Assembly (NCBI RefSeq): GCF_016097555.1
Contig: NC_054701.1
Location: 67,224,366-67,288,365, forward strand
DNA length: 64,000 nt
Direction: 5' to 3'
Origin: Gigantopelta aegis
Lineage: Eukaryota
Shown here: positions 10,424 through 59,687 of the stretch, in pieces
Position numbering within the stretch: position 1 is the first letter of the stretch
Layout of the letters: each line of letters starts with the position of its first letter
Notes under the pieces: model-generated
Databases searched by the model: none
What the model saw: the letters and a program-made list of their open reading frames with translations, nothing else
What the model was told of the DNA's origin: nothing
Made by a program: the position numbers and the translations under genes

Positions 10424-11100
10424 TTGACACTAAACTGTCAAGGACTTGGGGATTCAGAAAAGAGAAAAGATGTGTTAAACTATTTAAATTGTAAGAACTA
10501 TAACATTTATTGTCTCCAGGATACACATTTTACGACAGCCTTAGAACCGTATATACAGACGCAATGGGGGTATAAATGTTTCTTTAGTTCATATGCTACA
10601 AATGCCAGAAGCGTAGCCGTTATGATTAATATTAATTTCAAATACAGTGTACACAGAATTAAAATGGAGAACTTGGGGAATTTTATTTTAATAGATGTTA
10701 CAATTAAAGGTGAAAGAATTACACTAGCAAATATATATGGACCAAATGATGACAACATAATTTTCTTTCAAAACATATTTGAGTATATTGTACAATTTGG
10801 AAATGATAAATTCATAGTATGCGGAGACTTTAGTATTTAGTATTAAATCAAGACTTTGACATGGACACTAAACACTATTTACATGTTAACCACCCAAAGG
10901 CTCAAAAAGTAGTTGTTGAAAATATGGAAATGTTTGATGTAAAGGATGCATTTAGAGAATTATATCCAAATTTTAGACAATATACTTGGAGAAAAAAGAC
11001 ACCGCCAAAACAAGCCAGATTAGATTTTTCCTTATAACAAATAATTTAATGCCAACTGCAGAGAAAATAATAGTTGAAAATAGCTATCGCTCAGACAACT
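10424..11100 (+). pseudogene. LINE AP-endonuclease domain, broken
   Basis: Stop after ..GDFSI at 10840. Endonuclease-like sequence continues in another frame (DFDMDTKHYLHVNHP..YTWRKK..). Confidence 0.7.
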
Positions 11101-11741
11101 CAGGAGTAGTTTTATTTATGTAGCTAAACCAATTTAAAACAGGTAGAGGTCTGTGGAAATTCAATAATTCGTTGCTATTATGTAAAGATTATGTTAATCT
11201 AGTAAAGGATACAATCATAAAAATTAAATACCAATATGCAGTACCAGTATATAATTATGAAAAACTAGAATTGATTTCGGATGACGAAATCCATTTTTCT
11301 GTAAACGACCAACTTTTCTTAGAAACGCTGCTCATGGAAATAAGAGGAAAACAATATCTTATGCGTCTTTTAAAAAGAAACAAAATAATGAATTAGAAAC
11401 TAAGTTGTCCGATGATATTAAACGTTTGGAGGAAGAACAAAATATTGTTTCAAAAGAAATTGAAAAAAACCCTTATGAATTAATGGAACTGCGAAGAGAA
11501 AAGCTTAAAGGTCATTATATTCGGTCACGTGCAAAATGGATAGAAGAAGGAGAAAAACCAACAAAATATTTTTGTAACTTAGAATCAAGGAACTATTTTA
11601 GCAAACTTGTTTCAAGAATACGTTTAGAAAATGGATAAGAAATCCGAGGTCAAGAAGAAATTCTTAAAGAAACTAGAGCTTTCTATCAAAAACTTTACTC
11701 CGCACCAGAAGGACAAGATGACAAGGATATAATAGAAAAAA

Positions 11742-12691
11742 ATGGGTGAATTAAACTTTAATAAATTAACTGATGAAGAATCTGAACAATTAGAAGGTGA
11801 ATTAAAATACTCAGAAGTACTAGCATTTCTCAAAACTATGAAAAACGATAAAAGTCCTGGATCTGATGGATTTACTGCAGACTTCTTTAAATTCTTCTGG
11901 ACTGATCTCGGTCACTTTATAGTCAGGTCTATTAACAATAGTTACTCCATTAAGGAAATGTCTAGTGTACAAAAATTTGGTATAATTACATGTATTCCCA
12001 AAGCAAATAAACCTAAAGAATTTCTTAAAACCTTTATTGAACTGTACTTATAAAATGGCATCCGGCTGTATCGCAAACAGAATACAACAGGTATTAGATA
12101 AAATAATAAATAATGATCAAACCGGCTTTATTAAAGGACGATATATTGGAGAAAACATTAGACTCATATACGACATTATGCAGTACACTGATACACAGAA
12201 CATTCCAGGTTTATTGCTATTTGTCGATTTCGAGAAGGCCCTTTGACTCGGTATCGTGGTCATTAATAAATAAAGCACTTGATATTTTTAATTTTAAATC
12301 TTCGATTAAAAATTGGATCAAAACATTGTATAACAACTCTTTATCAAGAATATTGCAAAATGGTTTTCTGTCTGAACCGTTCATGCTAGAAAGGGGGTGT
12401 AGACAAGGGGACCCGTTGTCGCCATATATTTTTATTATTTGTGCTGAAATTTTAGCTATTATTGTTAGAAATAACGAAGCCATTAAAGGTATTGATATAG
12501 ACGGCCAAGAATACCTTATATCGCAATACGCCGATGACACAAGCTTCATTCTTGACGGATCTCCCGAGTCCTTGTACGGTACATGTAAAGTTTTAGATTA
12601 TTACGCACGTATTTCTGGTTTAAAAATAAATGATTTTAAATCAAAAGCCATAAGGATTGGAAGTAAAAAGTTCTCTAACGAGTTTTTTTAA
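11742..12691 (+). pseudogene. LINE reverse transcriptase domain, frameshifted
   Basis: Reverse transcriptase motifs are split over three overlapping ORFs in different frames. Confidence 0.75.
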
Positions 12692-14965
12692 CATGCACGA
12701 TGGAAGTTGGAATGGGGGGCAACAGATTTTTGTATACTTGGTATTAATTTCTCAGTTACCTTGGAACATATCATGCATCTAAATTATAATATTAAAGTAC
12801 TGGAAATTAAAAAATTAATGAAATTATGGTCCATTAGAAAATTAACGGTTTTGGGGAGAATAACTGTCCTTAAAATCGTAATAATACCCAAGCTAATATA
12901 TTTGCTAATATCATTGCCAGACCCAGGGAAAGGTTTAAAAAAAATATATATATAACGACGCTATTTCATAAATTTATTTGGCAGAATAAACCAGAAAAGC
13001 TCAAACGTGATTTAATAGCACAAGGTTATAAAGCAGGGGGTATTAAAATGTTAAACATATATCATTTTAAAACCTCGTTAAAATTTTCATGGTTACGGAT
13101 ACTGTTTTTAAACAATTCAAAGTGGGTTACCCTTTTCAAATCCGTTACAGGTATCTCAAAGAACGATTTAATAATATATGGTGATCCTTTTATTTCTAAA
13201 AAATGCAATGAGATGTCAAACATGTTTTGGAATGATACATTACTGAGTTGGATAACTACTGAACAAAAACATAAGCCACAATCTGTAGATGATATTTTAT
13301 CAGTTAACATTTGGCATAATAGTGAAATAGTTATAAATCATAAACCATTTTTATATAAACATTTTGCCCAAAAAGGTATAATCTTCATGAACGATTTAGT
13401 AGATGATTATGGAGAATTTTAAAAGAAAAATATCATGTTAATTCAAATTTCATTAGCTATGCTTCACTAATAAATGCTGTGAAATCATTCATATCAACAT
13501 TTACTGATTTTAGGATGATCGTTTCAAAAAAGTGAATAATCCAATTTTCCCTTTTAGGTTAAGACTTGTTTTGAAAAGTAAACAGGGATGTACGGACATG
13601 TATTGCAAACTCAACCATAAACGCATAATCCCAAAAGCGCAGATAAAATATAGAAATCAAGGATTTAATTTTGACTCAAGTGATTGGAAACAATACTATG
13701 AATTACCTTTCCAAAGCATTAACGATACAACTTTATTATGGTTTCAGTATCGTATCCTACATCGGATTTTAGCAACAAACACTTTTTTATATATATGATT
13801 CATTATGTAGATTCTAATATGTGTATATTCTGTAATAACTTCCCAGAAACTCTACAACATCTATTCTATGAATGCACTCAGGTTAATACTTTATGGAAAG
13901 CTGTAGAAGACTGGGTTTTGTCCAAAACAGGAATTGTTGTCCACCTTGACAAAAATATTGTTATGTTTGGTATTATTAACAAAAAGAACGTTAATATAAT
14001 TAACTGGCTAATTATTAAAATTAAATATTATATATACTGTACGAAAATGCAAGAAGAAAAAAACAACTATCGCGTCCGTTCAAAACGTTTTGCAAAACAA
14101 ATTTGAAATTGAGAAATATATTTATTTCAATAACTGCAACTATGAAAAGTTTAATAAAGAATGGGCACAATGGCTCAACCTTTTTATATAGTGAAAGAAA
14201 GAGAAACAAAACCCATTACACTTAGATAACGATCTACTCAAAGGAAAAACTTTTTGTGATAGCATGTTCATATAACATTCCAACACAGGCCCGACTGTTG
14301 TTCCTGTTATTATCATCAGTTTAATTCTGCTTCGTTACTCATCATCAACTTTAGGTTTTTCTTTCTCTTCTTCTTCTTCTTTATCTTCTTCTTCTTGTTC
14401 TTCTTGTTTTCCTTGTTTTTCTTCTTCTTCTCTCGTTGTTACCCTTTTTTCTTTTTCTTTTTTTAAAGTCCTGGACCATAAGGCGTGTATAAAAGGAAGT
14501 ACTATTTTATTTTGATTTGTATCTGCATATATCAGAATAGAATGTAATGTGAGTGCGTACGTGCGTGCGTGTATGCGTATGTATATGTGTATGTTTGTAT
14601 ATATGTATGTATGTTTACACATGTATGAATATTAATTTAAAGATAAATTGTAAGGCGGTGTATCAGGGCTACCCAACCCTGGCACTGTCTAATGGTCTGG
14701 GAACAATAAAAAAAATCGTTTAAAAAAAAGAAAAGAAATCAGAGCCCCATGATATGTGTGTGTCTTTGTTATTGTCTGAGAGTTGGATAATTGCTAGTTA
14801 TCATATGATATACGTAGATAAATAATATGAAAGGAGAACTTAATAACCGCCACCCATCCAGTTGCTGGCATCTCAGACTTTTATATAGAACTCGACTAGT
14901 TTCTGTGAAGAGAACTGGATCACTGGAAGAAAATAACTTTAAAAAAAAAGGTATATGAACTGACC

Positions 14966-26523: not shown

Positions 26524-26663
26524 ATGGCAGCACCACGGAGATCAGAGGAGAATTCCATCTTCCGAATCCCCCCGTACTTCTACCTGCACTGCCTTGACCA
26601 GAATAGCAATGTGACCCGCTTGGAAATCGGGCCCAAGACCTACATCAGACAAGACAATGAGAG
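26524..26663 (+). CDS. MVP: MVP exon 1. Encodes [46 protein letters not shown](R)
   Basis: Matches the vertebrate MVP N-terminus ([43 protein letters not shown], from memory). Donor AG|gtgaga at 26664. Confidence 0.85.
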
Positions 26664-27454
26664 GTGAGACTCAAGATGTACAGTCTTAAAACAGGTCGTA
26701 AATTAAGTATTTGTTGCCCAGGGCGCTGACTTAACAACGGCATCGATGGCAATTGCCGTTGTTGAGATATAAATTGCTGTAGGTAGAGACCATCACCGAT
26801 AGCATTTTTGTGCTGCTGGATAAAAGTTACTGGCAAAATGAATATATCTGGTGTATGTTATCTGTCAGTATTTAACATTTGTACATTTGAAATATGTCTA
26901 CATGCAATAAAATAACCTGTAAGTCATATTTATTTTCTGTGAAAGTTGCCTTTTAAAAAAATTGCCATAGGTTTACTCAAAATTTCCATTGGTGGGCTGT
27001 TTCGCACACAGCAATTGTTTTCTTTTTGATGCCATGGGTGACAAATTCATAAGTTCCAGTCCTGGTTGCCCACAATTTAAAACCCCCAAAAAACTTGTCT
27101 TGGAAAAACAACTCACTAACTGCAATGTTGAATCTGACTACTGCAATTTTTATCAAGTTACTTGCAACAAATAAATATGACTGAAAGATTATTTTGCTGT
27201 ATGTAGACATATTTCTATATACAAATGTTAAATACTGGCAGATAATGTGTACCAGCTGTTTACATTTTGCCATAGTTATAAGCTCTACTGATGGCAGTGA
27301 GGTATATTCCAGCGGCACAAAAGTGCTGTCGGTAATGCCCCTGATCAACAGCAATTTATATCTTGTTAAGTTCAAGCCCTGTTAAAATAAAATCCAATCT
27401 TATTAGGTCACTTTGACCTTTAAGGTCTGTCATTATATCCAGGGCTTCTAGATT

Positions 27455-27840
27455 ATGATGTGGCGTCGTGGCAGGCCATCGGTCTACAGGCTGGTAGGTA
27501 CTGGGTTCGGATCCCAGTCGAGGCATGGGATTTTTAATCCAGATACCGACTCCAAACCCTGAGTGAGTGCTCCGCAAGGCTCAATGGGTAGGTGTAAACC
27601 ACTTGCACCGACCAGTGATCCATAACTGGTTCAACAAAGGCCATGGTTTGTGCTATCCTGCCTGTGGGAAGCGCAAATAAAAGATCCCTTGCTGCCAATC
27701 GGAAGAGTAGCCCATGTAGTGGCGACAGCGGGTTTCCTCTCAAAATCTGTGTGGTCCATAACCATATGTCTGACGCCATATAACCTTAAATAAAATGTGT
27801 TGAGTGCATCGTTAAATAAAACATTTCTTTCTTTTTCTTT
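27455..27840 (+). repeat. tRNA-derived SINE, family B, in MVP intron 1
   Basis: Head ggctggtaggtactgggttcggatcccagtcgaggc. Body is shared with family A. The tail ends ..gttaaataaaacatttctttctttttctttctag. Confidence 0.75.
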
Positions 27841-28904
27841 CTAGATTATGATAGCCCCACTCCCATGGCTTGTGATATCAATGTTGTGCTAGTAAATAAC
27901 TACTAATAAGATGCCCGACGGCTAGTCAATTTTTCTTTGTCAAATGTTGCAGTTAAGTCTTATTTTGTAAATATGATTATGCTGCCCCCACCCCAACCCC
28001 CAATCTTACTGTTTTTAAGCTCTATCTCCCTGTTTATGTGACATATCTGATTATTACTATTATTTAGTAAAATTGTATTAACTTAAAACTAAAGTAGGGC
28101 TGGTGAATTTTTAATTGTGGCTAGTAAAATTTTTTAAATCACTGATCCCATGGCTAGTGGATTTTATAACTATTCTAGTAACCGTGTTATATCTAAGCAA
28201 AGCTCAGGACTAGAAAGTAATGGCTGCGATATCTGTTGTCATCAGTCAACGGCTGTACTGGTTTGAACACTGGTTAAAAAATATTGTGATTGGTTAAACT
28301 TAAAGGGATAATTTTGTGTTTATTTGTTACAAAAATTACTGATTTAAAATAGCAGTAGTCAGGCTCAAAATGGCCAAAACCTTTAAAAATTGCTGTAGGT
28401 AACAAATTATTAAGTTCAAGCCCAGAAAGCCAGTGTCACACGATATTCAGATGATCTGTTATTTGACCAATCAAATTACACTTAATATTGTAGACACTTT
28501 ATATAAAACTTAACAATTGGCTAATTTGGCAATAGACTTGATGAGCCCTTATTATAATTTAATCCCTGATTTCTACTTCATTTCCAGTCTGGGAAAGTGC
28601 ATATAAAAGATACCTTGCTGTATTAGGGAAAAAAGTAGCAGGTTTCCTCAAATGACTACGTGTCAGAATTACCAAATTTTTGACATGCAATCGCCGATAA
28701 TCCGACGCCATATAACCATAAATAAAATCTGTTGAGTGCATCGTTAAATAAAACATTTCCTTCCAATAGCTGATGATGACTTAATCAATGTGCTTTAATG
28801 TTAAACAAAATAAACTTTAACTTTTTTTATGTATGCATGGATCTGCTGGTTTTCTCTCTCAAAACTGGAACAGTTTGTAACATTTTAACTTAATCCCTTA
28901 ATTT

Positions 28905-29240
28905 GTGGGGCAGGACGTAGCCCAGTGGTAAAGCGTTCACTTGCTGCACAGTCGGTCTAGGATCGATCCCCATCGGTGGACTCATTGGGCTATTTCTTGT
29001 TCCAGCCAGTGCTCCACAACTGGTGTAACAAAGACCGTGGTATGTACTATGATGTCTGTGGGATGGTGCATATAAAATATCCCTTGCTGCTAATTGAAAA
29101 GAGTAGCCTATGAAGTGGTGACAGTGGGTTTCCTCTCTATATATCTCTGTGGTCTTTAATCATATGTCTGACGCCATATAACTGTAAATAAAATGTGTTG
29201 AGTGCGTTGTTAAATAAAACATTTCCTTCCTTCGTTCCCT
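28905..29240 (+). repeat. tRNA-derived SINE, family A, full length, ending 23 nt before MVP exon 2
   Basis: tRNA-like head gggcaggacgtagcccagtggtaaagcg..ggatcgatcccc carries A-box-like and B-box-like blocks. Tail ..gcgttgttaaataaaacatttccttcc. Confidence 0.8.
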
Positions 29241-29262
29241 TAGTTTGTACTATAATTTCCAG

Positions 29263-29582
29263 AGTGGTGTTGGGTCCCGAGAAGATGATCATTGTTCCCC
29301 CGCGCCACTACTGCGTGGTGGAGAACCCCGTGATCCGAAACAAGGACCTGGAGATCGCCTTCAATGAGGCGGGGCAGGTCAGGCTTCACCACGCCGACCA
29401 GGAGATCCGCCTCGCCCAGGAGCCGTTCCCACTGTACCCGGGGGAGGTGCTCAAGCAGCCAGTCACACCCCTTAAAGTCGTCCCGGCCAACTCGGCGCTT
29501 CGGCTGAGGGCGATCCTCGACTTCGAAGACCAGACGGGAGAGAAACGGACAGCAGGCGATGAGTGGTTGTTTGAAGGACCAG
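29263..29582 (+). CDS. MVP: MVP exon 2. Encodes (R)[55 protein letters not shown](G)
   Basis: Acceptor atttccag| at 29261-62. Donor G|gtaaga at 29583. Aligns with human [48 protein letters not shown]. Confidence 0.9.
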
Positions 29583-30694
29583 GTAAGAATAAAATGATGG
29601 ATGTAGTTATAAATCTATCGTTTGTCTCACAGTGAACACCTTTTTTTTCTTCATACTATGGAATTTACTACATACTATGGAATTTACTACAAGTTATTTA
29701 TTTCAGAGCCGTAGCCGATGATGAATTAATCAATGTGCTCCAGTGGTGTCGTTAAACAAAAACAAACATTTTTAAAATTTCTGAGCCAATTGTTTAGGTT
29801 TTTTTGTTATTTCCAGAGCATGTTTACTTTTCTTCTTATGTCAAACCAAACTGAAATTATTTATAAAAAACCCCTTTTTTGTAGGATGGGACCGGACAAT
29901 AGTTGTGCATTATAAACTAGCTCTTATACCATTTAATGGGTTTTTTCTTTTTTTAAATTTAATTTGTTTTTTTTTATATAAATTTTATAAACCCCAGAAA
30001 CAAATTTGGTAGTGTCAGGGTATACCATTTTACATAAAATGGAACAAAACCACCAATTTTACATTAAGACATATTCCAAAATTGACAGTCCTGTCTGTGG
30101 GATGGTGAATATAAAATATCCCTAGCTACTAATGGAAAAATGTTGCAGGTTTCCTCTCTAAGATGGATCCAATCAACTGATTGGGTTTTTTCTCTCATTC
30201 CAGCCAGTGTATCATGACCAGTATATCAATGGCTGTGGTGTGTGCTATCCTGTCTGTGGGATGATGCATATAAAAGGCCCCTTGCTACTAATGGCAAAAT
30301 GTAACATGTTTCCTCTCTAAGACTATGTCAAAATGACCAAATGTTTAATATCTTATAGCTGATGATTAATAAATCAATCTGCTCTAGTGGTGGTGTTAAA
30401 CAAATGTTTTAACTAATGGGTTATACACCTTCCATTCTTACCAGTTCTTATACCCCATTTTATGTTAGGATGTTAAGACTAAAGTCAAAAGCTAGTAGAT
30501 TGTTTTTGTACTAGCACAACTCAGTACCATAAATGTTCTAGTCTGTGCACACTTCACAACAACCATCTCCACACCCAGCAGACTCCCACTGGTCAGGTGA
30601 AATGATTTTACAAGTTCATAATTTCAAAAAAAAATCTGAATTCTCAGAGATGTCTTTTGAAAATATATTAATTTGCTGTATGTTTCTATCACAG

Positions 30695-30921
30695 GCACAT
30701 ATATTCCCAGGAAAGAAGTTGTCGTGGAAGAGGTTGCTAGGGCGACTGTGATAAAACCGAATCAGGCGATTCGCCTGCGTGCGAGAAAGGAGTGCCTGGA
30801 CCGTGACGGCAATGCCCGCGTGACAGGAGAGGAGTGGCTCGTTAAGAAGACAGGTGCCTACCTGCCCGGGGCGTACGAAGAAGTCATTGATGTCGTCAGT
30901 GCATACATCCTCACAGAAAAG
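30695..30921 (+). CDS. MVP: MVP exon 3. Encodes (G)[64 protein letters not shown]
   Basis: Acceptor tttctatcacag|. Donor AAG|gtagtc at 30922. Aligns with human [43 protein letters not shown]. Confidence 0.9.
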
Positions 30922-31142
30922 GTAGTCTCACCTGACAGGGTTTCATTTTATTTTGTTTTTATTATGTTTGTTTTTTTCTCATTCTAACTAGTGCCACATA
31001 ATTAGTATGTGCTGTCCTGTTTGTAGGATAGTGCATAAATAAAAAAGATCCCTTGCTGCTAATGGAAAAATTTACTGGGTTCCTGTGAAGACTGTGTCAG
31101 AATTACCAAATGTCTGCCATCCAATAGCTGATGATGACCGAC

Positions 31143-31522
31143 CTTGGTGGTGTCATGGTTAGGCGATCGGTCTACAGGCTGGTAGGTACTGGGTTCAGAT
31201 CCCAGTCGAGGCATGGGATTTTTAATCCAGATACCGACTCCAAACCCTGAGTGAGTGCTCCGCAAGGCTCAATGGGTAGGTGTAAACCACTTGCACCGAC
31301 CAGTGATCCATAACTGGTTCAACAAAGGCCATGGTTTGTGCTATCCTGCCTGTGGGAAGGGCAAATAAAAGATCCCTTGCTGCTAATCGGAAAGAGTAGC
31401 CCATGAAGTGGCGACAGCGGATTTCCTCTCAAAATCTGTATGGTCCTTAACCATATGTCTGACACCATATAACCGTAAATAAAATGTGTTGAGTATGTCG
31501 TTAAATAAAACATTTCTTTCGA
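31143..31522 (+). repeat. tRNA-derived SINE, family B, in MVP intron 3
   Basis: Near-identical to the copy at 27455-27840. Confidence 0.75.
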
Positions 31523-31918
31523 ATAGCTGATGATTAATTAATGTCCTCTAGAGGTATCATTAAACAAAACAAACATTTAACAAATATTATGTAGACAAAG
31601 TGTCACAAAAATCGTATACTCCAAATAATTGTAGTTTTAATTGTTGTGGTATGTGCTGTCCTATCCTTCCAAAAAAGTACTTTCAAGAAATATATTTCTG
31701 TATACAGTAAAGTACACTTATAATGAATTACTGCATAGAACAAACTGATCGTAAAGTCCTGTTTTATCTCCCTATACATTGATAACCAACTTATGCAAAT
31801 GTGCACAGCGAACTGCTTCTATAACGAACTAACTATCAGGATCCCTTCCAGTTCATTATAAGAGTACTTTAACTGTAGCTACATTGTAAATGCTAACTGC
31901 AATATGTATGTGTTACAG

Positions 31919-32044
31919 AAAGCTCTGCACATGCGGGCGTTGAGGACGTTCAAGGATGACTTTGGCATGACACGGAAGAACGGCGAAGAATGGCTGATTA
32001 CTACCAAGGACACCGAGGCACACATCCCTCATGTGTATGAGGAG
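31919..32044 (+). CDS. MVP: MVP exon 4. Encodes [42 protein letters not shown]
   Basis: Acceptor tgtgttacag| at 31917-18. Donor GAG|gtgaga at 32045. Aligns with human [42 protein letters not shown]. Confidence 0.9.
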
Positions 32045-33437
32045 GTGAGACTAGCCGGGCTGTCTGTTACAGTTTATCATAGTGATGACGTCCATAAATA
32101 GTAGTTACTAAAACTGATCAGTCCCTGGTTGGGCCTCTGGCTTTCCAGAGACAGGACCCGAGACAGACATGCTCGAAACCTTAGTGGTATAGGAGCATGT
32201 TAAAATATATTGCACTTGCACTATAACTGTCATATTTGTCTTGCCTTTATGCAGTGAAAAAGGCAAGATATACGTAGAGATTATTATACGAGCTTGTGTG
32301 TTGTACTGATTTTACAAAACGAGGGTCAGGATTATTGTATTAACTGAGCGAGAGCGAGGGTAATACATGAATCCTGACATAAGTTTCGTAAAAATCAGTA
32401 CTATTCACATGCGAGTGTAATAATTTCTTTATTATACAAAATATTATTTTCATGAATAAAGAGCTAGGACCATGTCAAACTGTTTCAAACATAACTGAAA
32501 AGAGACGACGAAACGACGTCATTTTCCGAAATGATATCATTAAGATAAGCGTTTATACTGGGGAAGCTGCATTAAGTTATGACATTGCTACACAAAATTA
32601 CGTCATTCGCTGTGTAAGTGAAATCGTTAAGACACACGTGGGTCATACTGGATATATTTCCCTGAATATCTTGAACTATGTGGATAATAAATGTAGATAT
32701 TACTTTTCCCACAGAGAAAGCATTAACGTTTGCGGTATAGCTTAAGTTTTACGTTTAGATCCGTTTCTCACAGACTATAAGTCCTAGATAAGTGATACTT
32801 GTCTTATGGTTGTTCATGTGGATGTTCAGGTGCATGTGAAAAGAATTAAGAATTAATTAATTAAAAGTTTTGCTCAGCGTTAAAAGTTTTGTGTTTAAAT
32901 TCAATTCTCAAAAACCTTTTAAGTCCTAGATCAATAAAACTTGGTTTGTACTTGCAACTATGGATGTTCATCCAGTGGCGTAGCATGGGCGGTGCCACCA
33001 GGGCAGTTGCCCTGAGCACAAAATTCTGCTGGATTGGTGGAAGGGACTTGGGGAGTGCTAATGGTCCACTGGTTGGGGGGCGCAGTACTTGCCTTGCCCT
33101 GGACGCTGGTAACCCATGTGTTCATCACAATGCATGTGACTAAAATAAAACTTATTAATTACAATTTTTAATTGCATTTCTTTTATTCTACTTACAATTT
33201 GTGACACCCAATAGCCAATGTGTATTTTTGTGCTGGAGTGTCGATAAACATTTATTCATTCTTTTATTAAATTGTTTTTTAAAACATTCACTGAGATGAA
33301 CTTTTTATTGATGCAACTATCAATACCGAATACATTTATCGTAGGCGAGATGTTTACTTGAATTCTTGTTTGTTTATATAAACAATGTGATGTATTATGC
33401 ATCTTATTTTATGATGTATGTTAAACTTTGTGTTTAG

Positions 33438-33548
33438 GTTGTGGGTGTGATCAACATTACTACGCTTTCTAACAGACAGTACTGTGTGATTCTCGACCCC
33501 ATTGATGAAACGGGAAACCCTCGACTCGGTATGAAGAGACTGGTGAAG
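33438..33548 (+). CDS. MVP: MVP exon 5. Encodes [37 protein letters not shown]
   Basis: Acceptor tgtgtttag| at 33436-37. The donor is a GC donor, AAG|GCAAGT, at 33549-54. Aligns with human [37 protein letters not shown]. Confidence 0.85.
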
Positions 33549-34402
33549 GCAAGTCGTGTTTTTAGCGGACGTATGTACTAATGAATTTGAAAGATAAATA
33601 TACAACTGTGTGTTACTTTTATTCTGCTAATTGTGACCCCGTAATTGCTTTTAGAATAGTATAATTTTGATAATGAAATGCATGTTAATAATTACAATGC
33701 AGATTTGATGAAAAATATTTAGAAAATTATATATTATAAAAACTAATTCAATCTTAATTTTATTCCACATTATTTTACTTTAAAATATGCATTAAAATCA
33801 TGTATTTGATATTTTTAAAAAAAGAGTAATTTATTGTATTTTTGACATGCAATTCAGTACAAAACGTTGATGGTATTGTCATATTTTCCTCTGGTGCATC
33901 AAAGATATTCAGTGGTATTTACTGAAAATGCAAACAGACCCCTTGCTGCTGTTCATGTGACGTGGCTGGTCTGGTGACAAGAGGCTTTTTCTTTCCTTCT
34001 CTAGACCCAGTGTCGAAATAACTCTAAACAAAATAGCCTCAGTTTAAAATGTAGGCCTTCTGGACCCAAGCTTATAAAACGTGAGTCCAGACTCGATTTC
34101 TAATGAAGTCGCACACATTCATTTTGTCTGGGGGTGTAATGACATTAGTGTCACACTTAGTCTCGAGTCTAGACTCTTAATTGTTTTATAAGCACTGTTA
34201 AACACCATTCCTGTTCATTGTTCCTGGCAGTTACTATATAATGTATTAAACATGTGTTTGCAAGGAGAGAAGTCCTTCTTTCTGATGTCAAGGGAGAAGT
34301 TGGAAAAGGGAATTCAGAATGTGTACTATAATGCACTATTATGCACTATTGTGCACTATTAGGTACTATAATAAGCTGTAATGTACTAATGCATATTTTC
34401 AG

Positions 34403-34537
34403 GGAGAGAAGTCATTCTTTCTGATGCCAGGGGAGAAGCTGGAAAAGGGAATTCAGAACGTGTACATCCTGGGAGAGGACGAGGGACTTATCCTCCGCGC
34501 CACTGAGACGTTCAAGGAGAAGGATGTCGGGGAAAAG
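34403..34537 (+). CDS. MVP: MVP exon 6. Encodes [45 protein letters not shown]
   Basis: Acceptor gcatattttcag| at 34401-02. Donor AAG|gtaaaa at 34538. Aligns with human [33 protein letters not shown]. Confidence 0.9.
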
Positions 34538-34552
34538 GTAAAAATGGTTATA

Positions 34553-35500
34553 AACATAACACTACACACGTCAGGGGTGTAGACTGGGTGCTGGGGGGGG
34601 GGGTTTGGACGAACATATCCAGTCATACACATAACACACACATCAGGGGTGTAGACTGGGTGCTGGGGGGGGGGGTAGACTGGGTGCTGGGGGGGGGGGG
34701 GGGGTTTGGACGAACATATCCAGTCATACACATAACACTACACACGTCAGGGGTGTAGACTGGGGGGTGGGTGGTGTGTTTGGATGAACATATCCAGTCA
34801 TACACATAACACTACACACATCAGGGGTGTAGACTGGGTGCTGGGGGGGGGGGGGTGGGACGAACATATCCAGTCATACACAAAACACTACACACGTCAG
34901 GGGTGTAGACTGGGGGGTGGGTGGTGGGTTTGGATGAACATATCCACTTTCATACACATAACACTACACACATCAGGGGTGTAGACTGGGGGGCGGGGGG
35001 GGGGGTTTGGACGAACATATCCAGTCATACACACAACACTACACATGTCAGGGGTGTAGACTGGGGGGTGGGTGGTGGGTTTGGATGAACATATCCACTT
35101 TCATACACATAACACTACACATCAGGGGTGTAGACTGAGGGGTGGGAGGGGGGGGTTTGGATGATGAACATATCCACAGTCATAAACATAACACTACACA
35201 CATCAGGGGTGTAGACTGGGGGGTGGGGGGGGGGGTTTGGACGAACATATCCACTTTCATACACATAACACTACACGCATCAGGGGTGTAGACTAGGGGG
35301 GGTTTGGATGAACATATCCAGTCATACACATAACACTACACACATCAGGGGTGTAGACTGGGGGTGGGTGGTGGGTTTGGATGAACATATCCAGTCATAC
35401 ACATAACACTGCACACGTCAGGGGTGTAGACTGGGGGGTGGGTTGGTGTTTTTGGATGAACATTATACACATACACATAACACTACAGACATCAGGGATG
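34553..35500. repeat. Minisatellite in MVP intron 6. About 12 copies of an approximately 78-bp unit with a G-rich core (ggggtgtagactggggggtgggtggtgggtttgg)
   Basis: Successive units ..acataacactacacacgtcaggggtgtagactgggg..tttggacgaacatatccagtcatac.. read directly. ORFs 34453-34984 are artefacts. Confidence 0.9.
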
Positions 35501-36379
35501 ATGGGGAGGTTGGTGGATTTGGATGAATAACACTACAGATATTCTACCACATGATTGAGACAATCCTTTGTGCACATAATGTAATACGGTAAAATTGCGC
35601 AATTAATCATTTGTTGTTTGTGATTTGCGGAAGTCTAGTTTTTGAGTTTCTGATCTTTTGTTTGGGCATTAAATTTAGGACATGATTTACCTGGACATAA
35701 TCAACATAACATATTTTGGACCCAAAGATCAACTGTTTTCGTGAGTGTGCTTTAAAATTATTCAGAGTGCATACATTAAGGAGGAAGAGTTGTCTGCCCT
35801 TTCATGTGAAGTGTCATAGTGATGCTAGTCACACTAAACATGGTAGTGATACAAATATTTTATATGGTCGGTTGTGTTATCACTAACATATATGGGGTGT
35901 CAACATGTCAACCCATTGAAAAAACAATTTTAAAAGCTCGGAAAAAACAAGAGGTGCTTAAATATATTTAAAGGTGAGGATCGGTCCCCTGTAGTGCAGG
36001 GCACATATTAAGTCAATGCTTTTCTTAATGTGCAGGGCGAGTTGCTTCCCTCTATTTAGCAAATTTAAAATGGTGGGCAAATGTCTTATGTTGTTGTTGG
36101 AAGATTTATTTTGTTAATAATGATGCAAGTACATCAACTGGGATTTAGTGAGTATGATAGGTCATACATTTTTGGTTTGTGTGTCCATTTGTTGCACTAT
36201 TTCGGTTGAGAAATGGTTGAAACATGGTGCCACATGTTTTGAATGCCAGCTATGTAGAGGATATGTAAGAATATTCGGACGTAGAAAGAACCACACTTTC
36301 GATGTCCGTTCAGACTAGGTCCCTTGGTCCACTCTGGATCTGCCTCTGAGCAGTAAGATTCCATTGTGTTTGTTAACAG

Positions 36380-36529
36380 GAGATAACTCGCAGACCTGGA
36401 GACAAGTGGATGATCCGTGGACCTAAAGAATATGTCCCACCCGTTGAAGTCGAAGTTGTGATGAAGAGACAGGCCATCCCATTGGACGAAAATGAAGGCA
36501 TTTACGTCAGAGATATCAAATCGGGAAAG
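36380..36529 (+). CDS. MVP: MVP exon 7. Encodes [50 protein letters not shown]
   Basis: Acceptor tttgttaacag|. Donor AAG|gtaatt at 36530. Aligns with human [45 protein letters not shown]. Confidence 0.9.
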
Positions 36530-37370
36530 GTAATTCAGAAAAATGTGTTTTTAAAAATCTGTCCTAGTTTATCCTAAAAGTTTGTTTTCTTTAACAACAC
36601 CACTAGAACACATTGAATTATTATTAATCATTGGTAAACATTTGGTAATTTTGACAGTCTTTGAGAGGAAACACACTAAATGTTTTCCATTAGTAGCAAT
36701 GGATCTTTTATATGCACCATCCCACAGCCAGGATAGCACATACCACAGCCTTTGATATACCAGCTGGGGTGCACAGGCTGTTGAATTAAACAAATAAAAC
36801 AGTATATGATACATTGTAGAACAATGCAAATAAGAATGACTACATCTGACAGTGATTACTAAATCAATGTGCTATAGTTGTGCAATGAAATAAAACAAAC
36901 TTTTCATGGAATCTACAGTATTTAACACACTATTATGTAATATATAAATATTATACATTTCCTGGCTCCACAATGTAGTTAGTACGGCCTCCGTGGGTCC
37001 AGAATGTATTGGACTCGAGTCAAACCTGACTACCTGACTACTTGAGTACCTGACACTTACACTAGATGATAATGAGATTAAGGAATAAAGTAAAATAGCA
37101 TTATGTATCTGAATTCCAGCGTTGAACATGAATGCCAAATGGTGCCATTATATTGCATTCCACACATTCGATTTTTTGTTTTCCTTCCATATCTCGTAGC
37201 ACTATAATGTAACTGGCATCAAGCATATGACAAAATGACATAAAACAATATAATTAAATGAGAGTGCTCTCCCTTGCATGGGTACTCGAGTCCTGTGAAC
37301 GGACTTGAGTCTTACTAGACTCGGTCCGTGGCCGAGTACTTGTGGAGACTCTGGTATTTGTTTGCTATAA

Positions 37371-37688
37371 CAGGGGCGGGATGTAGCCGAGTGTCAAAGC
37401 GCTCTCTTGGTGCCCCGTCGGTCTGGGATCGGTCCCCATCGATAGACCCATTGGGCTATTTCTTGTTCCAGACAGTGCACCATGACTGATATATCAAAGG
37501 TTGTGGTATATACTACCCTGTCTGTGGGATGATGCATATAAAAGATCCCTTGCTGCTAATCAAAAAGAGTAGTCCATGAAGTGGCGACAGCGGGTTTCCT
37601 CCCTCAATACGATGTGGTCCTTAATGATATGTCCAACGCCATATAACTGTAAATGTGTTGAATGTGTCTTTAAATAAAACATTTCAGG
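37371..37688 (+). repeat. tRNA-derived SINE, family A, in MVP intron 7
   Basis: Head gggcgggatgtagccgagtgtcaaagcg..ggatcggtcccc and the shared body and tail. Confidence 0.75.
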
Positions 37689-38275
37689 CCCGTAGCCAGG
37701 ATTTTTTTTTGGGGGGGGGGTCGTTTAGGCTTATAGTTAGGGTGGTCCACAGGGGGTATTAAAAAAAAGTCACCCATAAGTCACCCCCCTGATCCCCCAT
37801 TGGCTATGGGCCTGCATTTCCTTCCTTTAGTTGCTATTACAGTAGCACATTTGGTTTCATTATACAGTATTGATCTCGAAGGATTGTTTTAGGCTTTCTT
37901 GTTTTATATGCTTATAAAAACTGGGTTTTTTGTTTAACGACACCACTAGAGCACATTGATTGATTAATCATCGGCTATTGGATGTCAAACATTTTGTAAT
38001 TCTGACTCGTAGTCAACATTGGAAACCCGCTACATTTTTCCTAATGCAGAAAGGGATGTTTTATATGCATCATCCCACAGACAGGATAGCACATACCACA
38101 GCCTTTGATATACCAATCGTGGTGCACTGGCTGGAATGAGAAATAACCAGATGGGCATGAAAAGTATTTAACAGTTTTTGTATAAAATCATTAAAGATTA
38201 TTTTACACTTGTTTGTTCATCTACGTATCCTTTCATAGAATCAACAGTATTTAACACGTTTTTATTTTCTGCCAG

Positions 38276-38514
38276 GTCCGTGGTGTCACGGGTATAACAT
38301 ACATGTTGAACCAGGACGAGGAGCTGTGGGAGAAGACGGTGCCCCCCACCGTCGAGGGACTTCTCCAGCAGGGCAAGGACCCTCTGGCCGACCGTAGTGA
38401 TCGCAGTGCGCGCGAGTCCACGCCGAAAACTCGCGACAAGACGCGGGTCATCAACTTCCGGGTTCCTCACAATGCGGCTGTTCAGATCTACGACTATAAG
38501 GAAAAGAAAGCAAG
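38276..38514 (+). CDS. MVP: MVP exon 8. Encodes [64 protein letters not shown](R)
   Basis: Acceptor ttttctgccag| at 38274-75. Donor AAG|gtaggt at 38515. Aligns with human [65 protein letters not shown]. Confidence 0.9.
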
Positions 38515-39209
38515 GTAGGTCATTCCGTTTTGCAAGCGTCTGAAAAGTGCAAGAGCGATAATTTTGTTTGCAATGTGTACTTTTGCGTAACCCATTTTTC
38601 ATTGTGCTATAACTTTTAGGAGTCTATTGGTAATTTAAAGCACTTGCTTGATGCTCGGTCGGTTTGGGATCGATTCTCGTTTGTAGGCCCATTGGGCTGT
38701 TCCTCGTTCAAGCCAGTGCACCACAAAGGCCATGGTATGTGCTATCCTGTCTGTGGGATGGTGCATATAAAAGATCCCTTGCTGCTAATGGAAACATTCA
38801 GCGAGATTCCTCTCTAAGACTATGTTAAAATTACCAAATGTTTGACATCCAAGAGTTCTAGTGGTGTCATTAAACAAAACAAACTCGAACAGTAACTTTA
38901 GGATATCAATTATATTGTTGTATCAGGTTATGCAAAAGGAAATGTGTTATCTGTAATTTGTTTTGTGTAATCCATAAATGTTTTACACAAATTTCAATTA
39001 TCAAAGACCTGGCTCCATCAATACATACATATATATAATTAACTAAAACGTACACAAAATTGGTCTTGAAACATAATTATTTGCTCTTGTGCAATTTTAT
39101 GTTTGGATGACCAAATATCTAGTTTGAAAATGTGCTGAGAGGAACCATTTCTTTCTATGTATATTTTTTCTCTCTCGCTCCCTCTCCCTCTCCCTCTCCA
39201 ACTCTCTCC

Positions 39210-39320
<111 letters not shown>

Positions 39321-39453
39321 CCTCCTTCCTTCCTATCTTTTTGTACCACCACTACCAACATTGTAGTTCAATTAAGATCACACCAATTTCTTTTATAAAT
39401 AATCTTGTGGATGTTCCTACCAACTGTATGTGACATGTTGTTTGTTATTTCAG

Positions 39454-39651
39454 AGTTGTGTTTGGCCCTGAGCTGGTGATGCTTGGTCCAGATGAACAGT
39501 TCACCCAGCTCAGTCTGTCTGGTGGGAAGCCCAAGAAACCCAACGTCATCAAGTCTCTGTGTCTGCTGCTCGGCCCAGATTTCTGCACAGACATCATCGT
39601 CGTGGAGACGGCTGACCATGCCCGACTTTCTCTTCAGCTCTCATACAACTG
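39454..39651 (+). CDS. MVP: MVP exon 9. Encodes (R)[65 protein letters not shown](W)
   Basis: Acceptor tttgttatttcag| at 39452-53. Donor TG|gtaagt at 39652. Aligns with human [63 protein letters not shown]. Confidence 0.9.
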
Positions 39652-40211
39652 GTAAGTCTGTTGTAATACACAAGGTTATAATATTTCTTAAACTTTTTTT
39701 TTATTTGCTGATAAAATATGGATAAAAGTGACCTTTGGGAAAAATAGTCTGATTACTACCAAATTTTACTATATAATTGGATTTGAATCCTGAAATGTGG
39801 AAACGAGTCCCATTTTAGTAATGGATCTTCTGTTGATACATGATTCATCTAACTTTCGTTCCAGCCAAGTGCTCCACAACTGGTGTAGCAAAGTCTGTGG
39901 TATGTACTATGCTGTCTGTCGGATGATGCATATAAAAGATCCCTTGCTGCTAATCGAAAAGAGTAGTCCATGAAGTGGCGACAGCGGGTTTCCTCTCTCA
40001 ATATCTGTGTGGTCCGTAACCATATGTCTGGTGCCATATAACCGTCAATAAAATGTGTTGAGTGTGTCGTTAAATATAAGATTTAGATGGTATTCATAAT
40101 TAATTTTGTCACAGGTTCAGTTTTAACCATTGTGATAATTCTGTAATTCTAATGAGTAACTACTGCCAACATACCTATAACAGTATTTAATGTAAGATCT
40201 GTACTATGCAG

Positions 40212-40353
40212 GTTCTTTGAAATCAAGTCGAAGTCTCCCGAGGAAGCGGCCAAGCTGTTCAGTGTCCCGGACTTTACGGGAGATTCCTGCAAGGCCATCG
40301 CCTCCCGTGTGAGAGGAGCTGTAGCTCAGGTCCAGTTCGATGACTTTCACAAG
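40212..40353 (+). CDS. MVP: MVP exon 10. Encodes (W)[47 protein letters not shown]
   Basis: Acceptor ctgtactatgcag| at 40210-11. Donor AAG|gtttgt at 40354. Aligns with human [49 protein letters not shown]. Confidence 0.9.
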
Positions 40354-40622
40354 GTTTGTACTCGACCCCATGTAATATATAGAGGATTCGTCATCAGGGT
40401 TTTTAAATATGGAAAATATCAACCAATACTACATTTACTGATTAACTGGACAAGGTTGATATTTTCCATATTAATCTTTAGACTACTGGATTAATTTTTG
40501 ACAAAAACCATGTTGAGTGTGTACAAGATTTTTGCTCTAGATCTAGTGTCTTTTACACCTAATAGCCACAACTTGAAATAGTGTGCAGCGGTATCTTTAA
40601 ACAAACATTCCTTTCCTTTCAG

Positions 40623-40834
40623 AATTCTGCTAAAATCATCCGAGCTTCCGTGTTCGGCTTTGATGATAAGAACAAGGTGCGCGACCGGTTTATTTTCTCC
40701 CAGAACAGCCTGGTGATCACGAGCATCGACATCCAGTCGGTGGAGCCCGTCGACCAGCGAACCCGCGACTCGCTCATAAAGTCTGTGCAGCTTGCCATCG
40801 AGATCACAACCAACTCGCAGGAAGCTGCTGCCAG
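40623..40834 (+). CDS. MVP: MVP exon 11. Encodes [70 protein letters not shown](R)
   Basis: Acceptor ttcctttcctttcag| at 40621-22. Donor CAG|gtagat at 40835. Aligns with human [50 protein letters not shown]. Confidence 0.9.
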
Positions 40835-41640
40835 GTAGATACCGATTGATATTATACACATGGTATAAAATAAACCATATTATACATATGATATAAAATA
40901 AACAGTATTATACATGATATAAAATAAACAGTATTATACATGATATAAAATAAACCATATTATACATATGATATATAATAAACAGTATTATACATGATAT
41001 AAAATAAACAGTATTATACATGATATGAAATAAACAGTATTATAACATTAATATCACCACCAACTCACAGGAAGCTGCTGCCAGGTAGATACCGATTGAT
41101 ATTATACACATGGTATAAAATAAACCATATTATACATATGATATAAAATAAACAGTATTATACATGATATAAAATAAACAGTATTATACATGATATAAAA
41201 TAAACAGTATTATACATGATATAAAATAAACCATATTATACATATGATATATAATAAACAGTATTATACATGATATAAAATAAACAATATTATACATGAT
41301 ATGAAATAAACAGTATTATAACATTGAGATCACCACTAACTCACAGGAAGCTGCTGCCAGGTAAATACCGATTGATATTATACACATGATATAAAATAAA
41401 CAGTATTATACACGTGATATAAAATAAACAGTACTATAAACATCGAGATCACCACCATCTCACAGGAAGCTGCTGCCAGGTAGATACAGATTGATATTAT
41501 ACTATAAACATTGAGATCACCACCAACTCTACAGCCAGGTAGATAAAAATTGGCATTACACACATGATATAAAATAAACAGTATTATAAACATTGAAATC
41601 ACCACCAAGTCAAATGAAGCTGCTGCCAGGTTGATGTGAC
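40835..41640. repeat. Tandem array in MVP intron 11 that repeats the exon-11 3' end plus the donor site. It is interleaved with a 27-bp minisatellite (atgatataaaataaacagtattataca)
   Basis: Copies of caccaactcacaggaagctgctgccaggtagataccgattgatattatacacatg lie near 41053, 41335, 41455 and, more degenerate, 41510 and 41600. The true junction is at 40805-40850. Confidence 0.85.
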
Positions 41641-41825
41641 AGTATTCAGAACATTCAAGAACTCTGTGTTTAGTCAATAATATCATGAAGGTGATATTGT
41701 TAGTATGCACATTGAGTATCAGCATGCATATTGAGTATAGGGGTATTGGTAAGAAAGTAAGAAATTCTTCATTTAGGCTTTGTACAGCTGCTATTCACAC
41801 ATACCCCAACCTGTATTATCTTGTA

Positions 41826-42040
41826 TTACCAACCTCGGTAGTGTTGTGGTTAAGTCATCGGACATAAGGCTGGTAGGCACTGGGTTCGCAGCCTGGTACC
41901 GGTTCCCACAACTAACAAGTAACCTACTGTTCTGGACAGATAGCTGAATTGTGTGCTCAGGACAGCGTGCTTGAACCTTAATTGGATATGTCCCATTGGG
42001 CTCTTTCTTGTTTCAATATCTGTGTGGTCCTTAACCATAT
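41826..42040 (+). repeat. tRNA-derived SINE, family C, fragment in MVP intron 11
   Basis: ggctggtaggcactgggttcgcagcctggtaccgg..cttgaaccttaattggatatgtcc. Confidence 0.5.
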
Positions 42041-42110
42041 GTCTGATGCCATATAACCGTAAATAAAATGTGTTGAGTGCGTCATTAAATAAAAAATTTC
42101 CTTCCTTCAG

Positions 42111-42354
42111 ACACGAGGCTGAGCGACTGGAGCAGGAGGCGCGCGGTCGTCTGGAGCGCCAGAAGATCAGTGACGAGGCGGAGGCCGAACGCGCCCGCAA
42201 GGAGCTGCTGCTGTTGCAGGCGAACAGCGCCGCTGTCGAGAGCACAGGGCAGGCAAAGGCCGAGGCTCAGTCCCGCGCCGAGGCGTCCAAGATTGAGGGT
42301 GAGGCAGCCGTCGAACAGGCCAAGCTGAAGGCTCAGGCCATGAAGATTGAGGCG
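42111..42354 (+). CDS. MVP: MVP exon 12. Encodes (R)[81 protein letters not shown]
   Basis: Acceptor tttccttccttcag| at 42109-10. Donor GCG|gtaaga at 42355. Aligns with human [83 protein letters not shown]. Confidence 0.9.
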
Positions 42355-42375
42355 GTAAGATTTGGTTTTGTTTCA

Positions 42376-43127
42376 TACTTTGTTTCTTGGTAACTACCAG
42401 ACAAGACAGATGCCCCATTATATCCATTTGTACCCTGCCTGTTTAGTTTGTTTTATACTTGGTGGTCATGCTTGGTCTTTGTTCTTTCTTGGTAACTACC
42501 AGACAAGACGATGCCCCATTTATATCCATTTGTACCCTGCCTGTTTAGTTTGTTTTATACTTGGTGGTCATGCTTGGTCTTTGTTCTTTCTTGGTAACTA
42601 CCAGACAAGACGATGCCCCATTTATATCCATTTGTACCCTGCCTGTTTAGTTTGTTTTATACTTGGTGGTCATGCTTGGTCTTTGTTCTTTCTTGGTAAC
42701 TACCAGACAAGATGATGCTCCATTTATATCCATTTGTTCCCTGGCTGTTTAGTTTGTTTTATACTTGGTGGTCATGCTTGGTCTTTGTTCTTTCTTGGTA
42801 ACTACCAGACAAGACGATGCCCCATTTATATCCATTTGTACCCTGCCTGTTTAGTTTGTTTTATACTTGGTGGTCATGCTTGGTCTTTGTTCTTTCTTGG
42901 TAACTACCAGACAAGACAGATGCCCCATTTATATCCATTTGTACCCTGCCTGTTTAGTTTGTTTTATACTTGGCGGTCATGCTTGGTCTTTGTTCTTTCT
43001 TGGTAACTACCAGACAAGGCAGATGCCCCATGTATATCCATTTGTACCCTGGCTGTTTAGTTTGTTTTATATTTGGTGGTCATGCTTGGTCTTTGTTCTT
43101 TCTTGGTAACTACCAGACAAGTAACCC
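42376..43127. repeat. Tandem repeat in MVP intron 12: about 7 copies of an approximately 104-bp unit
   Basis: cttggtaactaccagacaagacgatgccccatttatatccatttgtaccctgcctgtttagtttgttttatacttggtggtcatgcttggtctttgttcttt repeats. ORFs 42362-43109 are artefacts. Confidence 0.9.
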
Positions 43128-43164
43128 AAAAAATGTAGTTACATAAAACAAACTTTTAACTCTT

Positions 43165-43166
43165 TT

Positions 43167-43206
<40 letters not shown>

Positions 43207-43512
43207 GACGTAGCCCAGTGGTACAGTGCTTGCTCGATGCACGGTCGGTCTGGGATCGATCCCCATTGGTGGGCCCATTGGGCTATTTCGTTTCAGGCAG
43301 TGGTATATCAAAGACTGTGGTATGTACTACCCTGTCTTTGGAATAGTGCATATAAAAGAACCCTTGCTGCTTATTGAAAAGAGTAGCCCATGAAGTGGGG
43401 ACAGCGAGTTTCCTCTCTCAATATCTGTGTGGTCCTTAACCATATGTCTGACACCATATAACCGTAAATAAAATGTGTTGAGTGCATCGTTAAATAAAAC
43501 ATTTCCTTCCTT
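43165..43512 (+). repeat. (G)39 tract followed by a family A SINE that ends 41 nt before MVP exon 13
   Basis: Homopolymer 43165-43203. SINE head gggcaggacgtagcccagtggtacagtgc.. and tail ..catcgttaaataaaacatttccttcc. Confidence 0.8.
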
Positions 43513-43553
43513 TAACTCTTTTTTTTTTTTTTTTTAAATATTACTTTCAACAG

Positions 43554-43898
43554 GAGTCTGAGCTGGAGAGACTGACAAATGCTCGCGAGGCTGAACTGAG
43601 ATTCATCAAAGAGCAGAACGAAATGGAGATTGACAAGTCGCGCGAGGTCTCGACCATCGACACGTCCAAGTTCAAGGACATGGTGGAGGCGATCGGTCCG
43701 GACACGCTGCGCATGATGGCCCAGTCCGGCCCCGAGATGCAGGTCAAACTGCTGCAGGCCCTCAACCTCAAGTCCACCCTGATCACCGACGGGTCGAACC
43801 CCATCAACCTCTTCAACACGGCCAACGGGCTGATCGGAGGAATGGTCCCGTACAAGCGCCGCAAGCAACAAGAGGAAGCTGATGATGATTCTGATTAA
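43554..43898 (+). CDS. MVP: MVP exon 13, terminal. Encodes [114 protein letters not shown]
   Basis: Acceptor ttactttcaacag| at 43552-53. Stop TAA at 43896-98. Aligns with human ..[55 protein letters not shown]. The 13 exons sum to 2589 nt, which is 862 codons plus a stop. Confidence 0.9.
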
Positions 43899-57797: not shown

Positions 57798-58624
57798 TCA
57801 TGCTGGTTCTGACAGGTGGGAAGTCGTAGCCACCAGGGATGCAGGTGTTAGGTAACCCTCACGTATTGAAGTGTTATTCAACAGAGTCTGTGCAGCAACA
57901 ACTGGACCCAGATGATGGAACCCCTCAACGTCTTCTGTGGAGACATCCCTCAGATAATAGTTGGCGAAGATGGAGTCCGTATCCCAGAAACAACCAGTGA
58001 TAATGTGCTGAATGGATGTGTTGCAGTGCAGGGACATCGTGGCAGCCAAGGCACGGAGTTCATGCGGATTAGAAGCAGACGGAGCAGGTAAACCCTCCTT
58101 CTGATAGGCGGTCAGGATAGAAGACCGGATCCAGGTGGCCACCGTGTTCTTGGTAAGGTCCCTCAACCGACTCTGGTTACAGGAAAGGAAAAGTCTTTTG
58201 CGATGTTGTCGAAAAGATCTGGTCCTCTCGATGTACTGGTGCAGGGCTCTGACAGGGCACAACGCCAAGTCCTCAACGTCCGCCGGACCAACGATAGAGG
58301 AGAGGGCCTGCACAACATACGAACGAGGCGCTTGGTCTGGTAAACTGATTCTTTGCAACAAAGTTCATGAGTAACCCCCAAGTTGACTGCACGCCGATCT
58401 TGGTGAAAACGTACCAAGTCTACATCAAGAGCATGGAGTTCTGAGACACGGGCAGCCGTGGCAAAACCGAGTAAAAACACCGTCTTCCGCATCAAGTCTT
58501 GCAGGGAAGAGGATTCGATCGGCTCATAAGGTGCGGTCGATAACGCTCGTAACACCAGATTCAGGTCCCATCTTGGTGGCCGAAACCGGTGTACTTGATC
58601 ATCAAGGCGAAACCCTTTGATCAT
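57798..58624 (-). pseudogene. Tyrosine recombinase of DIRS type. It is split over two overlapping frames, so it carries a frameshift
   Basis: ORF 58163-58624: ..WDLNLVLRAL..FLLGFATAARVSELHAL... ORF 57798-58361: ..LCPVRALHQYIERT..HELRALAATMS..CFWDTDSIFANYYLRD. These give the R, H-x-x-R and tyrosine motif pattern. Confidence 0.65.
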
Positions 58625-58720
58625 CTTATGGATCTCAGGAATACCCGATAACTTCGTTCCAGTAGCGACATCACGAACAGTAGCGATGACCGAAAACGTA
58701 CCCAGCGATGGTAGACCCCT

Positions 58721-59687
58721 TTAATCGTAAAGTGGTCCGCAGATACAGCCAAAAAACCCAGCAAGACGAAGTATCTGGATCGTCTGAGGTTTGAGGTTTT
58801 GCCGGACACACCCTCGGTGAAAGCAAAGCCATCTGACGTTGTAAGCCACAGTAGTAGATGATCTGTGCGCTTTCAAAATGGCCGCCGTAGACTGTGAAGA
58901 AAAACCTTTCTTTCTCAAACTCTTGGCGATAAAGTCCACGCGTGCAGTTGGAACAACTGCGGACGTGGATGGTATAGTCTTGACGTGGGATGCAGCAACA
59001 GATGATCCCAGTCTGGCAGCGGTAAAGGATGTGGATCGACAAGACGTATTAGATCTGGATACCACATCCTGGATGGCCACATTGGAGCAATGAGTAACAG
59101 GCAACAATGGTACAGCTGAAACCTCTGAAGCACCCTTGGAAGGAGGATTCGTGGAGGAAAAGCGTACGCTTCGGGATCCAGCACCGGAGACACGTAAACC
59201 CTCAGCTGATGGTTGAATCGTGTGGCGAAGAGATCGATGTTTGGTGTCCAAAGTCTGTCGCACACCCATCGAAACGCTTCGGGATGGAGCATCCATTCCG
59301 TCGGCTGTGGAGACGACGGCCGAGACAGTGTGTCGACTAGTACATTGGAAACCCCTGGAATATGGCGAGCCCGAAGTTGCAACGGAATCTCGTCAACCAG
59401 CTTGTAGAGACGATAAGTCAACTGCAGCAGACTGCTGGAGTGGGTTCCGCCCTGACGGTTGATATAAGCCACCGCGGTAGTACTGTCTGTGGCTACCATG
59501 AGAGAGGCGCCTGACAGCATCTCTCGCCAATGAAAGATGACGTAACTGACAACATCTCCAACAGGTTGATGTGTAGATCGGCTTCATCTGGAAACCACAG
59601 CCACCAACAGGGACTGGACTGCAAGGCGACTGGTAACCGGATCAGCAAATCTGCGTTATTGTACTGAATGCATGGATTCAGAAACAA
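58721..59687 (-). pseudogene. DIRS RNase H-like domain (..ATDSTTAVAYINRQGGTHS..ARHIPGVSNVLVDTLSR..NIDLFAT..) plus a degraded reverse transcriptase tail (..YNNADLLIRLP..)
   Basis: Minus ORFs 58915-59520, 58721-59296 and 59493-59687. The frames overlap, which implies frameshifts. Confidence 0.55.

Follow-up and report, generated by a model that had tools for sequence, protein, structure and literature searches.

Does intron 5 of the major vault protein (MVP) gene of Gigantopelta aegis begin at a GC dinucleotide, at a GT located six nucleotides upstream in the same reading frame, or at both? The question is raised by positions 33541-33556 of the window (that is, the whole stretch of DNA analysed, 64,000 nt), which read TGGTGAAGGCAAGTCG: coding exon 5 ends with CTG GTG AAG and is followed by GCAAGT at 33549-33554, the GC itself occupying 33549-33550. 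For annotation the choice is consequential: a gene finder restricted to GT-AG introns would either take the upstream GT, with two conserved residues deleted, or break the gene model.

The exons of the gene were mapped by tblastn, with a human MVP sequence and a database MVP as queries, and exon borders were set by a junction search in which GT or GC donors were allowed and the resulting joins were scored against mollusc MVP. The gene thus delineated has a 17.4-kb span, and its parts relevant to intron 5 are as follows (here and below, a slash in a sequence marks an exon-intron border or, in a protein, the exon join).

26524-43898, plus strand: MVP coding region, 13 coding exons encoding 862 aa with the ORF intact, as established from tblastn, the junction search and the assembled coding sequence (CDS).
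33438-33548, plus strand: coding exon 5, 111 nt encoding 37 aa, in phase 0 at both ends and preceded by the acceptor tttgtgtttag/GTT.
33549-34402, plus strand: intron 5, 854 nt, predicted as GC-AG.
34384-34402, plus strand: 3′ end of intron 5, with a candidate branch site tactaat (34384-34390), a T-rich tract and a cag acceptor.
34403-34537, plus strand: coding exon 6, 135 nt encoding 45 aa, which opens with GGA GAG AAG (GEK, continuing as GEKSFF...).

The 862-aa product carries the Pfam domains Vault, Vault_2, Vault_3, Vault_4 and MVP_shoulder and is matched by MVP chains in PDB at E = 2e-48; the MVP repeat, shoulder and C-terminal coiled-coil regions form a complete set within the single intact ORF. 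With the full-length protein as query, the closest match was MVP of Haliotis cracherodii (85% identity), followed by those of Lottia (82%) and of Patella, Batillaria and Biomphalaria (81%), mollusc MVPs being 79-85% identical to the product overall. In a neighbour-joining (NJ) tree, Gigantopelta MVP is sister to Haliotis, inside the gastropods. Judged by its sequence, the gene is an invertebrate one of gastropod-like molluscan type, with affinity to gastropod MVPs, and not a vertebrate one. The preliminary description of this DNA had read the locus against vertebrate MVP: its identification as MVP stands, but the vertebrate frame does not, as gastropod MVPs group with the gene and abalone MVP reaches 85% identity.

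GT-AG borders delimit 11 of the 12 MVP introns, and a GC donor is required by intron 5 only. Coding exon 5 here corresponds to the sixth coding exon in five of six molluscs (all but Lottia), owing to an extra intron in their exon 2. Exon 2 of Gigantopelta (29263-29582, 320-nt) is uninterrupted, and Tegillarca, Candidula, Haliotis, Lottia, Biomphalaria and Pomacea have an intron in or adjoining the same stretch, which suggests that an intron was lost in the Gigantopelta lineage. Exon 7 begins at a tandem acceptor of the NAGNAG type (36375-36385, ttaaCAGGAG/ATA); either AG is in frame, with one Glu in or out (GEK[E]ITRR), and this region is variable among homologues.

At the end of exon 5, two potential donors lie within a few nucleotides of each other.

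33549-33554, plus strand: inferred 5′ splice site AAG/GCAAGT (GC donor), placed by the KRLVK/GEK join, the flank score and the match in Candidula.
33543-33548, plus strand: upstream in-frame GT, CTG/GTGAAG (GT at 33543-33544), which belongs to a Val codon; candidate cryptic or minor donor.

The join KRLVK/GEK, which had the top junction score against mollusc MVP, was obtained only with an exon ending at 33548 and the GC donor. To score donor contexts, a position weight matrix (PWM) was derived from 107 GT donors of nine MVP genes and applied to the seven positions that flank the dinucleotide. The flanks of the GC site scored 8.43 bits (99th percentile), which is the maximum among the 107 true donors, and of the 614 GC dinucleotides in the gene it alone reaches this score. 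The 9-mer AAGGCAAGT, on the other hand, is statistically unremarkable when taken alone (two matches in the window vs ~0.5 expected, with 12 of 100 shuffles also reaching two), but its position at a shared phase-0 intron exceeds chance. The two sites are left unseparated by the energies of their duplexes with U1, which in a simple calculation are similar, at -5.6 to -5.9 kcal/mol for the GC site and -5.4 kcal/mol for the GT at -6.

At its 3′ end, intron 5 has an acceptor with a pyrimidine tract, gtactaatgcatattttcag/GGA (ttttcag/GGA); the branch site tactaat was assigned by eye and from the consensus only. Retention of the intron would give a truncated protein, as 854 nt is no multiple of three and an in-frame TAA is found 30 nt in. 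Three other ways of reading the donor were rejected. A U12-type intron is not indicated, as the donor is GCAAGTCG, without /[AG]TATCCTT. A donor at +4 (CAA/GTCGTG) is out of frame unless combined with a poor acceptor, and one at +9 (CGT/GTTTTT) would add the residues ASR; the flank score of each is below -5 bits.

To place the donor in an evolutionary context, eight annotated MVP genes were compared, for which the genomic loci were fetched and each protein was threaded onto its DNA. Seven other animals, ranging from coral to snails, have a phase-0 intron directly after the Lys or Arg that corresponds to the end of exon 5, and its donors are as follows.

Tegillarca: AAG/GTAATT.
Haliotis: AAG/GTAATA.
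Biomphalaria: AAG/GTAAGA.
Pomacea: AAG/GTGAGG.
Acropora: AAG/GTGCTG.
Bugula: AGG/GTGTGT.
Candidula unifasciata (land snail; L003 9841): AAG/GCAAGT, in the annotated model.

The homologous intron thus begins with GT in six of the seven species and with GC in Candidula, where the deposited protein reads LLVK/GEK, so that the GC donor is the one used by its annotation. In the MVP gene of Lottia gigantea (L008 3218/3219) the homologous intron is absent and the equivalents of exons 5 and 6 are fused; on this comparison, the intron is lost there. Both borders of exon 5 are common to Tegillarca, Candidula, Haliotis, Biomphalaria, Pomacea and Acropora, with its start shared also with Lottia and its end with Bugula. 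The same border across these species makes the exon 5/intron border ancient (cnidarian to mollusc), with GT as the ancestral donor. Three GC-AG introns were found in the eight annotated genes, one in Candidula and two in Bugula, and all have (A/C)AG/GCAAGT; those of Bugula neritina (L005) are introns 1 and 2, at positions other than that of the intron 5 homologue. In the tree, Haliotis, Pomacea and Biomphalaria, each with GT, are placed between the Gigantopelta and Candidula lineages, so that the parsimonious account is a T-to-C change that happened twice independently. The GC-AG intron that had been proposed to follow exon 5 is supported by the conserved intron position, the donor of Candidula, the retained residues, the perfect flanks and a gene that is otherwise intact and GT-AG; likewise, the proposed AG/GCAAGT consensus donor is present as AAG/GCAAGT, with a flank score equal to the highest of the 107 real donors.

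The upstream GT is also present as had been described: CTG/GTGAAG lies 6 nt upstream and in frame, and its use would delete Val-Lys. It would place GGAGAGAAG directly after ...AGACTG and drop the GTGAAG codons; use of the GC donor would give a cDNA with ...CTGGTGAAG/GGAGAG. The flanks of the GT at -6 scored 0.38 bits, which ranks at the 6th percentile of the 107 true donors and is equalled or exceeded by 7.6% of the gene's 1150 GTs. A GT at -6 is found as well in Tegillarca, Candidula, Biomphalaria, Acropora and Bugula, in all of which except Candidula the exon itself ends at a normal GT donor, and it is absent in Haliotis and Pomacea, where the residue is Ile. Being the GT of a conserved Val codon, it can be explained as a by-product of coding and provides no evidence for alternative splicing; it is probably only part of that codon.

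Among ~340 homologues, the seven-residue spacing G-x-x-x-L-V/I-K before GE is unvaried and no two-residue deletion at the junction was found, the few exceptions being aberrant models with larger differences. Most of these proteins come from gene models, and clustering at 90% collapses isoforms that are nearly identical, so that a minor isoform lacking Val-Lys would go unseen in this set. Intron-free, transcript-like contigs keep the residues (one, L002, reads AAG CTG GTG AAG GGC GAG), and the solved structures of rat, mouse and human MVP align without gaps across the junction, where the Val-Lys pair is situated within MVP repeat domain 6. The suggestion that the two sites give isoforms differing by two amino acids is thus unsupported, in view of the weak context at -6 and the ~340 homologues without such a deletion.

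Transcripts of the gene were also sought. In protein searches, no protein or transcript of the same species was found, identity being at most 85%; shorter queries returned no match longer than ~1.75 times the query, and full-length MVPs were reached only with the 862-aa query. Exact-pattern scans of metagenome contigs yielded no match to the spliced junction (of either isoform) or to exon 6. A literature search for work linking major vault protein with GC-AG introns found nothing.

Several repeats and duplications are located in and around the gene, one of them within intron 5.

34224-34326, plus strand: decayed partial duplicate in intron 5, which repeats the final ~40 nt of the intron together with the opening 63 nt of exon 6.

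This duplicate has 82% column identity in a pairwise alignment and was also the second tblastn match. Its acceptor CAG is mutated to CAA, which puts it outside the CDS; as an exon, the exon-6-like copy was rejected on account of this CAA and of a stop after six codons when a shifted AG is taken. Intron 11 (40803-41630) harbours tandem duplications that recur every ~250-276 nt, with a 26-nt AT-rich minisatellite interspersed between them. They include the final ~40 nt of exon 11 in four complete extra copies and a truncated fifth, each with a donor similar to CCAG/GTAGAT. A SINE-like dispersed repeat with a 47-nt core occurs nine times in the window (at 20159, 27763, 29161, 31452, 40021, 42036, 43441, 47274 and 51881); six of the nine lie within introns of MVP and have the same orientation as the gene. 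One of these, in intron 11, extends as far as the exon 12 acceptor (…AATTTCCTTCCTTCAG/), whose pyrimidine tract it seems to provide. Intron 6 features ~11 copies of a 74-nt unit (34570-35497) with long G runs on the coding strand, and GC skew is +0.24 across 34-36 kb; intron 8 contains a (TC)n microsatellite of ~75 dinucleotide repeats (39169-39318). Upstream of MVP, transposon remnants are found at 7689-8243 and 10424-14106, comprising a fragment of a DDE_3 (Tc1/mariner-type) transposase and a LINE with endonuclease and reverse-transcriptase ORFs. A GC-rich block at 57800-62000 (51-55% GC vs ~35% elsewhere) has many overlapping ORFs, mostly on the minus strand, two of which had no match in Pfam. 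No intronic RNA was detected when the gene was scanned with Rfam.

The reading that we favour, and regard as very probable, is that intron 5 belongs to the U2-type GC-AG introns and occupies a conserved position, and from the protein join and the donor context we infer that splicing in Gigantopelta takes place at the GC site. U1 snRNA would pair with AAG/GCAAGT at all positions but the C at +2, a mismatch for which the otherwise perfect consensus would compensate, and the intron would be removed to the ttttcag/GGA acceptor, such that ...KRLVK is joined in frame to GEKSFF.... The GC donor would have originated by a T-to-C change at +2 of the ancient GT donor, and the GT at -6, with which the conserved Val codon begins, would be at most a minor cryptic site.

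An unlikely arrangement, in our estimate, is one in which both donors are used, the GC donor for the main mRNA and the GT at -6 for a detectable minor isoform without Val-Lys. The GT at -6 is in frame, its U1 pairing energy about equals that of the GC site and an excess of GC donors at alternatively spliced sites has been reported (PMC2490688), yet a 6th-percentile context that ~8% of the GTs in the gene can equal, the presence of Val-Lys in all ~340 homologues and a GT that is forced by the Val codon, and that also stands beside normal donors in Tegillarca, Biomphalaria, Acropora and Bugula, argue against it. It is hardly credible that the upstream GT is the sole donor, with a mature protein lacking Val-Lys: the protein would lose two residues that all homologues and the solved structures retain, the border is located after the Lys position in seven other species, Candidula has a GC donor at the same place and the context of the GT at -6 is weak, against which it can be said only that this is the one canonical, frame-keeping GT near the exon end.

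The same exon border would be retained if the C at 33550 came from faulty assembly or sequencing, or from a rare allele, in which case the true donor would be AAG/GTAAGT, a perfect canonical site. Although the ancestral donor was GT, as six of the seven other species still have it, and a difference of only one base is involved, such an error or allele is highly improbable: exon 5 within the window bears no sign of poor sequence quality, the GC state occurs independently in Candidula, and perfect-consensus contexts are where GT-to-GC changes are tolerated. The chance that the locus is a decaying pseudogene with its donor knocked out is vanishingly small. A non-GT donor and duplicated exon fragments in introns could be cited for it, but none of the 13 exons is broken by a frameshift or stop, the 862-aa product is 85% identical to abalone MVP and the other 11 introns are GT-AG. 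As for the identical donor in two gastropod lineages, it is very unlikely to reflect selection for a weakened donor, whether for regulated use of the GT at -6 (isoforms with or without Val-Lys) or for regulated intron retention; the neutral alternative is T-to-C drift in a strong context.

GC-AG introns make up ~1% or less of introns. Intron 5 as read here, with its GC donor, is an ordinary new instance of this known class and raises no new question. In U2-type GC-AG introns, the mismatch at +2 is compensated by an otherwise strong donor consensus (PMC2490688; PMC7072748). In its predicted form, intron 5 resembles them in its GC at +1/+2, its AG acceptor, its (A/C)AG/G-AAGT context and its apparent derivation from an ancestral GT at a conserved position, and differs in nothing substantial. 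Tandem 5′ splice sites and the GC-donor-regulated alternative splicing of C. elegans let-2 intron 10, here as cited in PMC2490688, offer a second comparison: a weakened GC donor with a second potential in-frame donor a few nucleotides away is common to both, but the competitor in Gigantopelta is weak and owes its GT to a codon, and the residues at stake are invariant among homologues. The closest likeness by descent is with the MVP intron of Candidula, which is in the same gene, is a phase-0 intron after L-V-K, and has the identical 9-nt donor together with the Val GT at -6; the origin of its GC donor is nevertheless probably independent, given the NJ tree and the GT in Haliotis, Pomacea and Biomphalaria. 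The same GC donor in Candidula illustrates the published view that a change from GT to GC is tolerated where the remaining donor is perfect.
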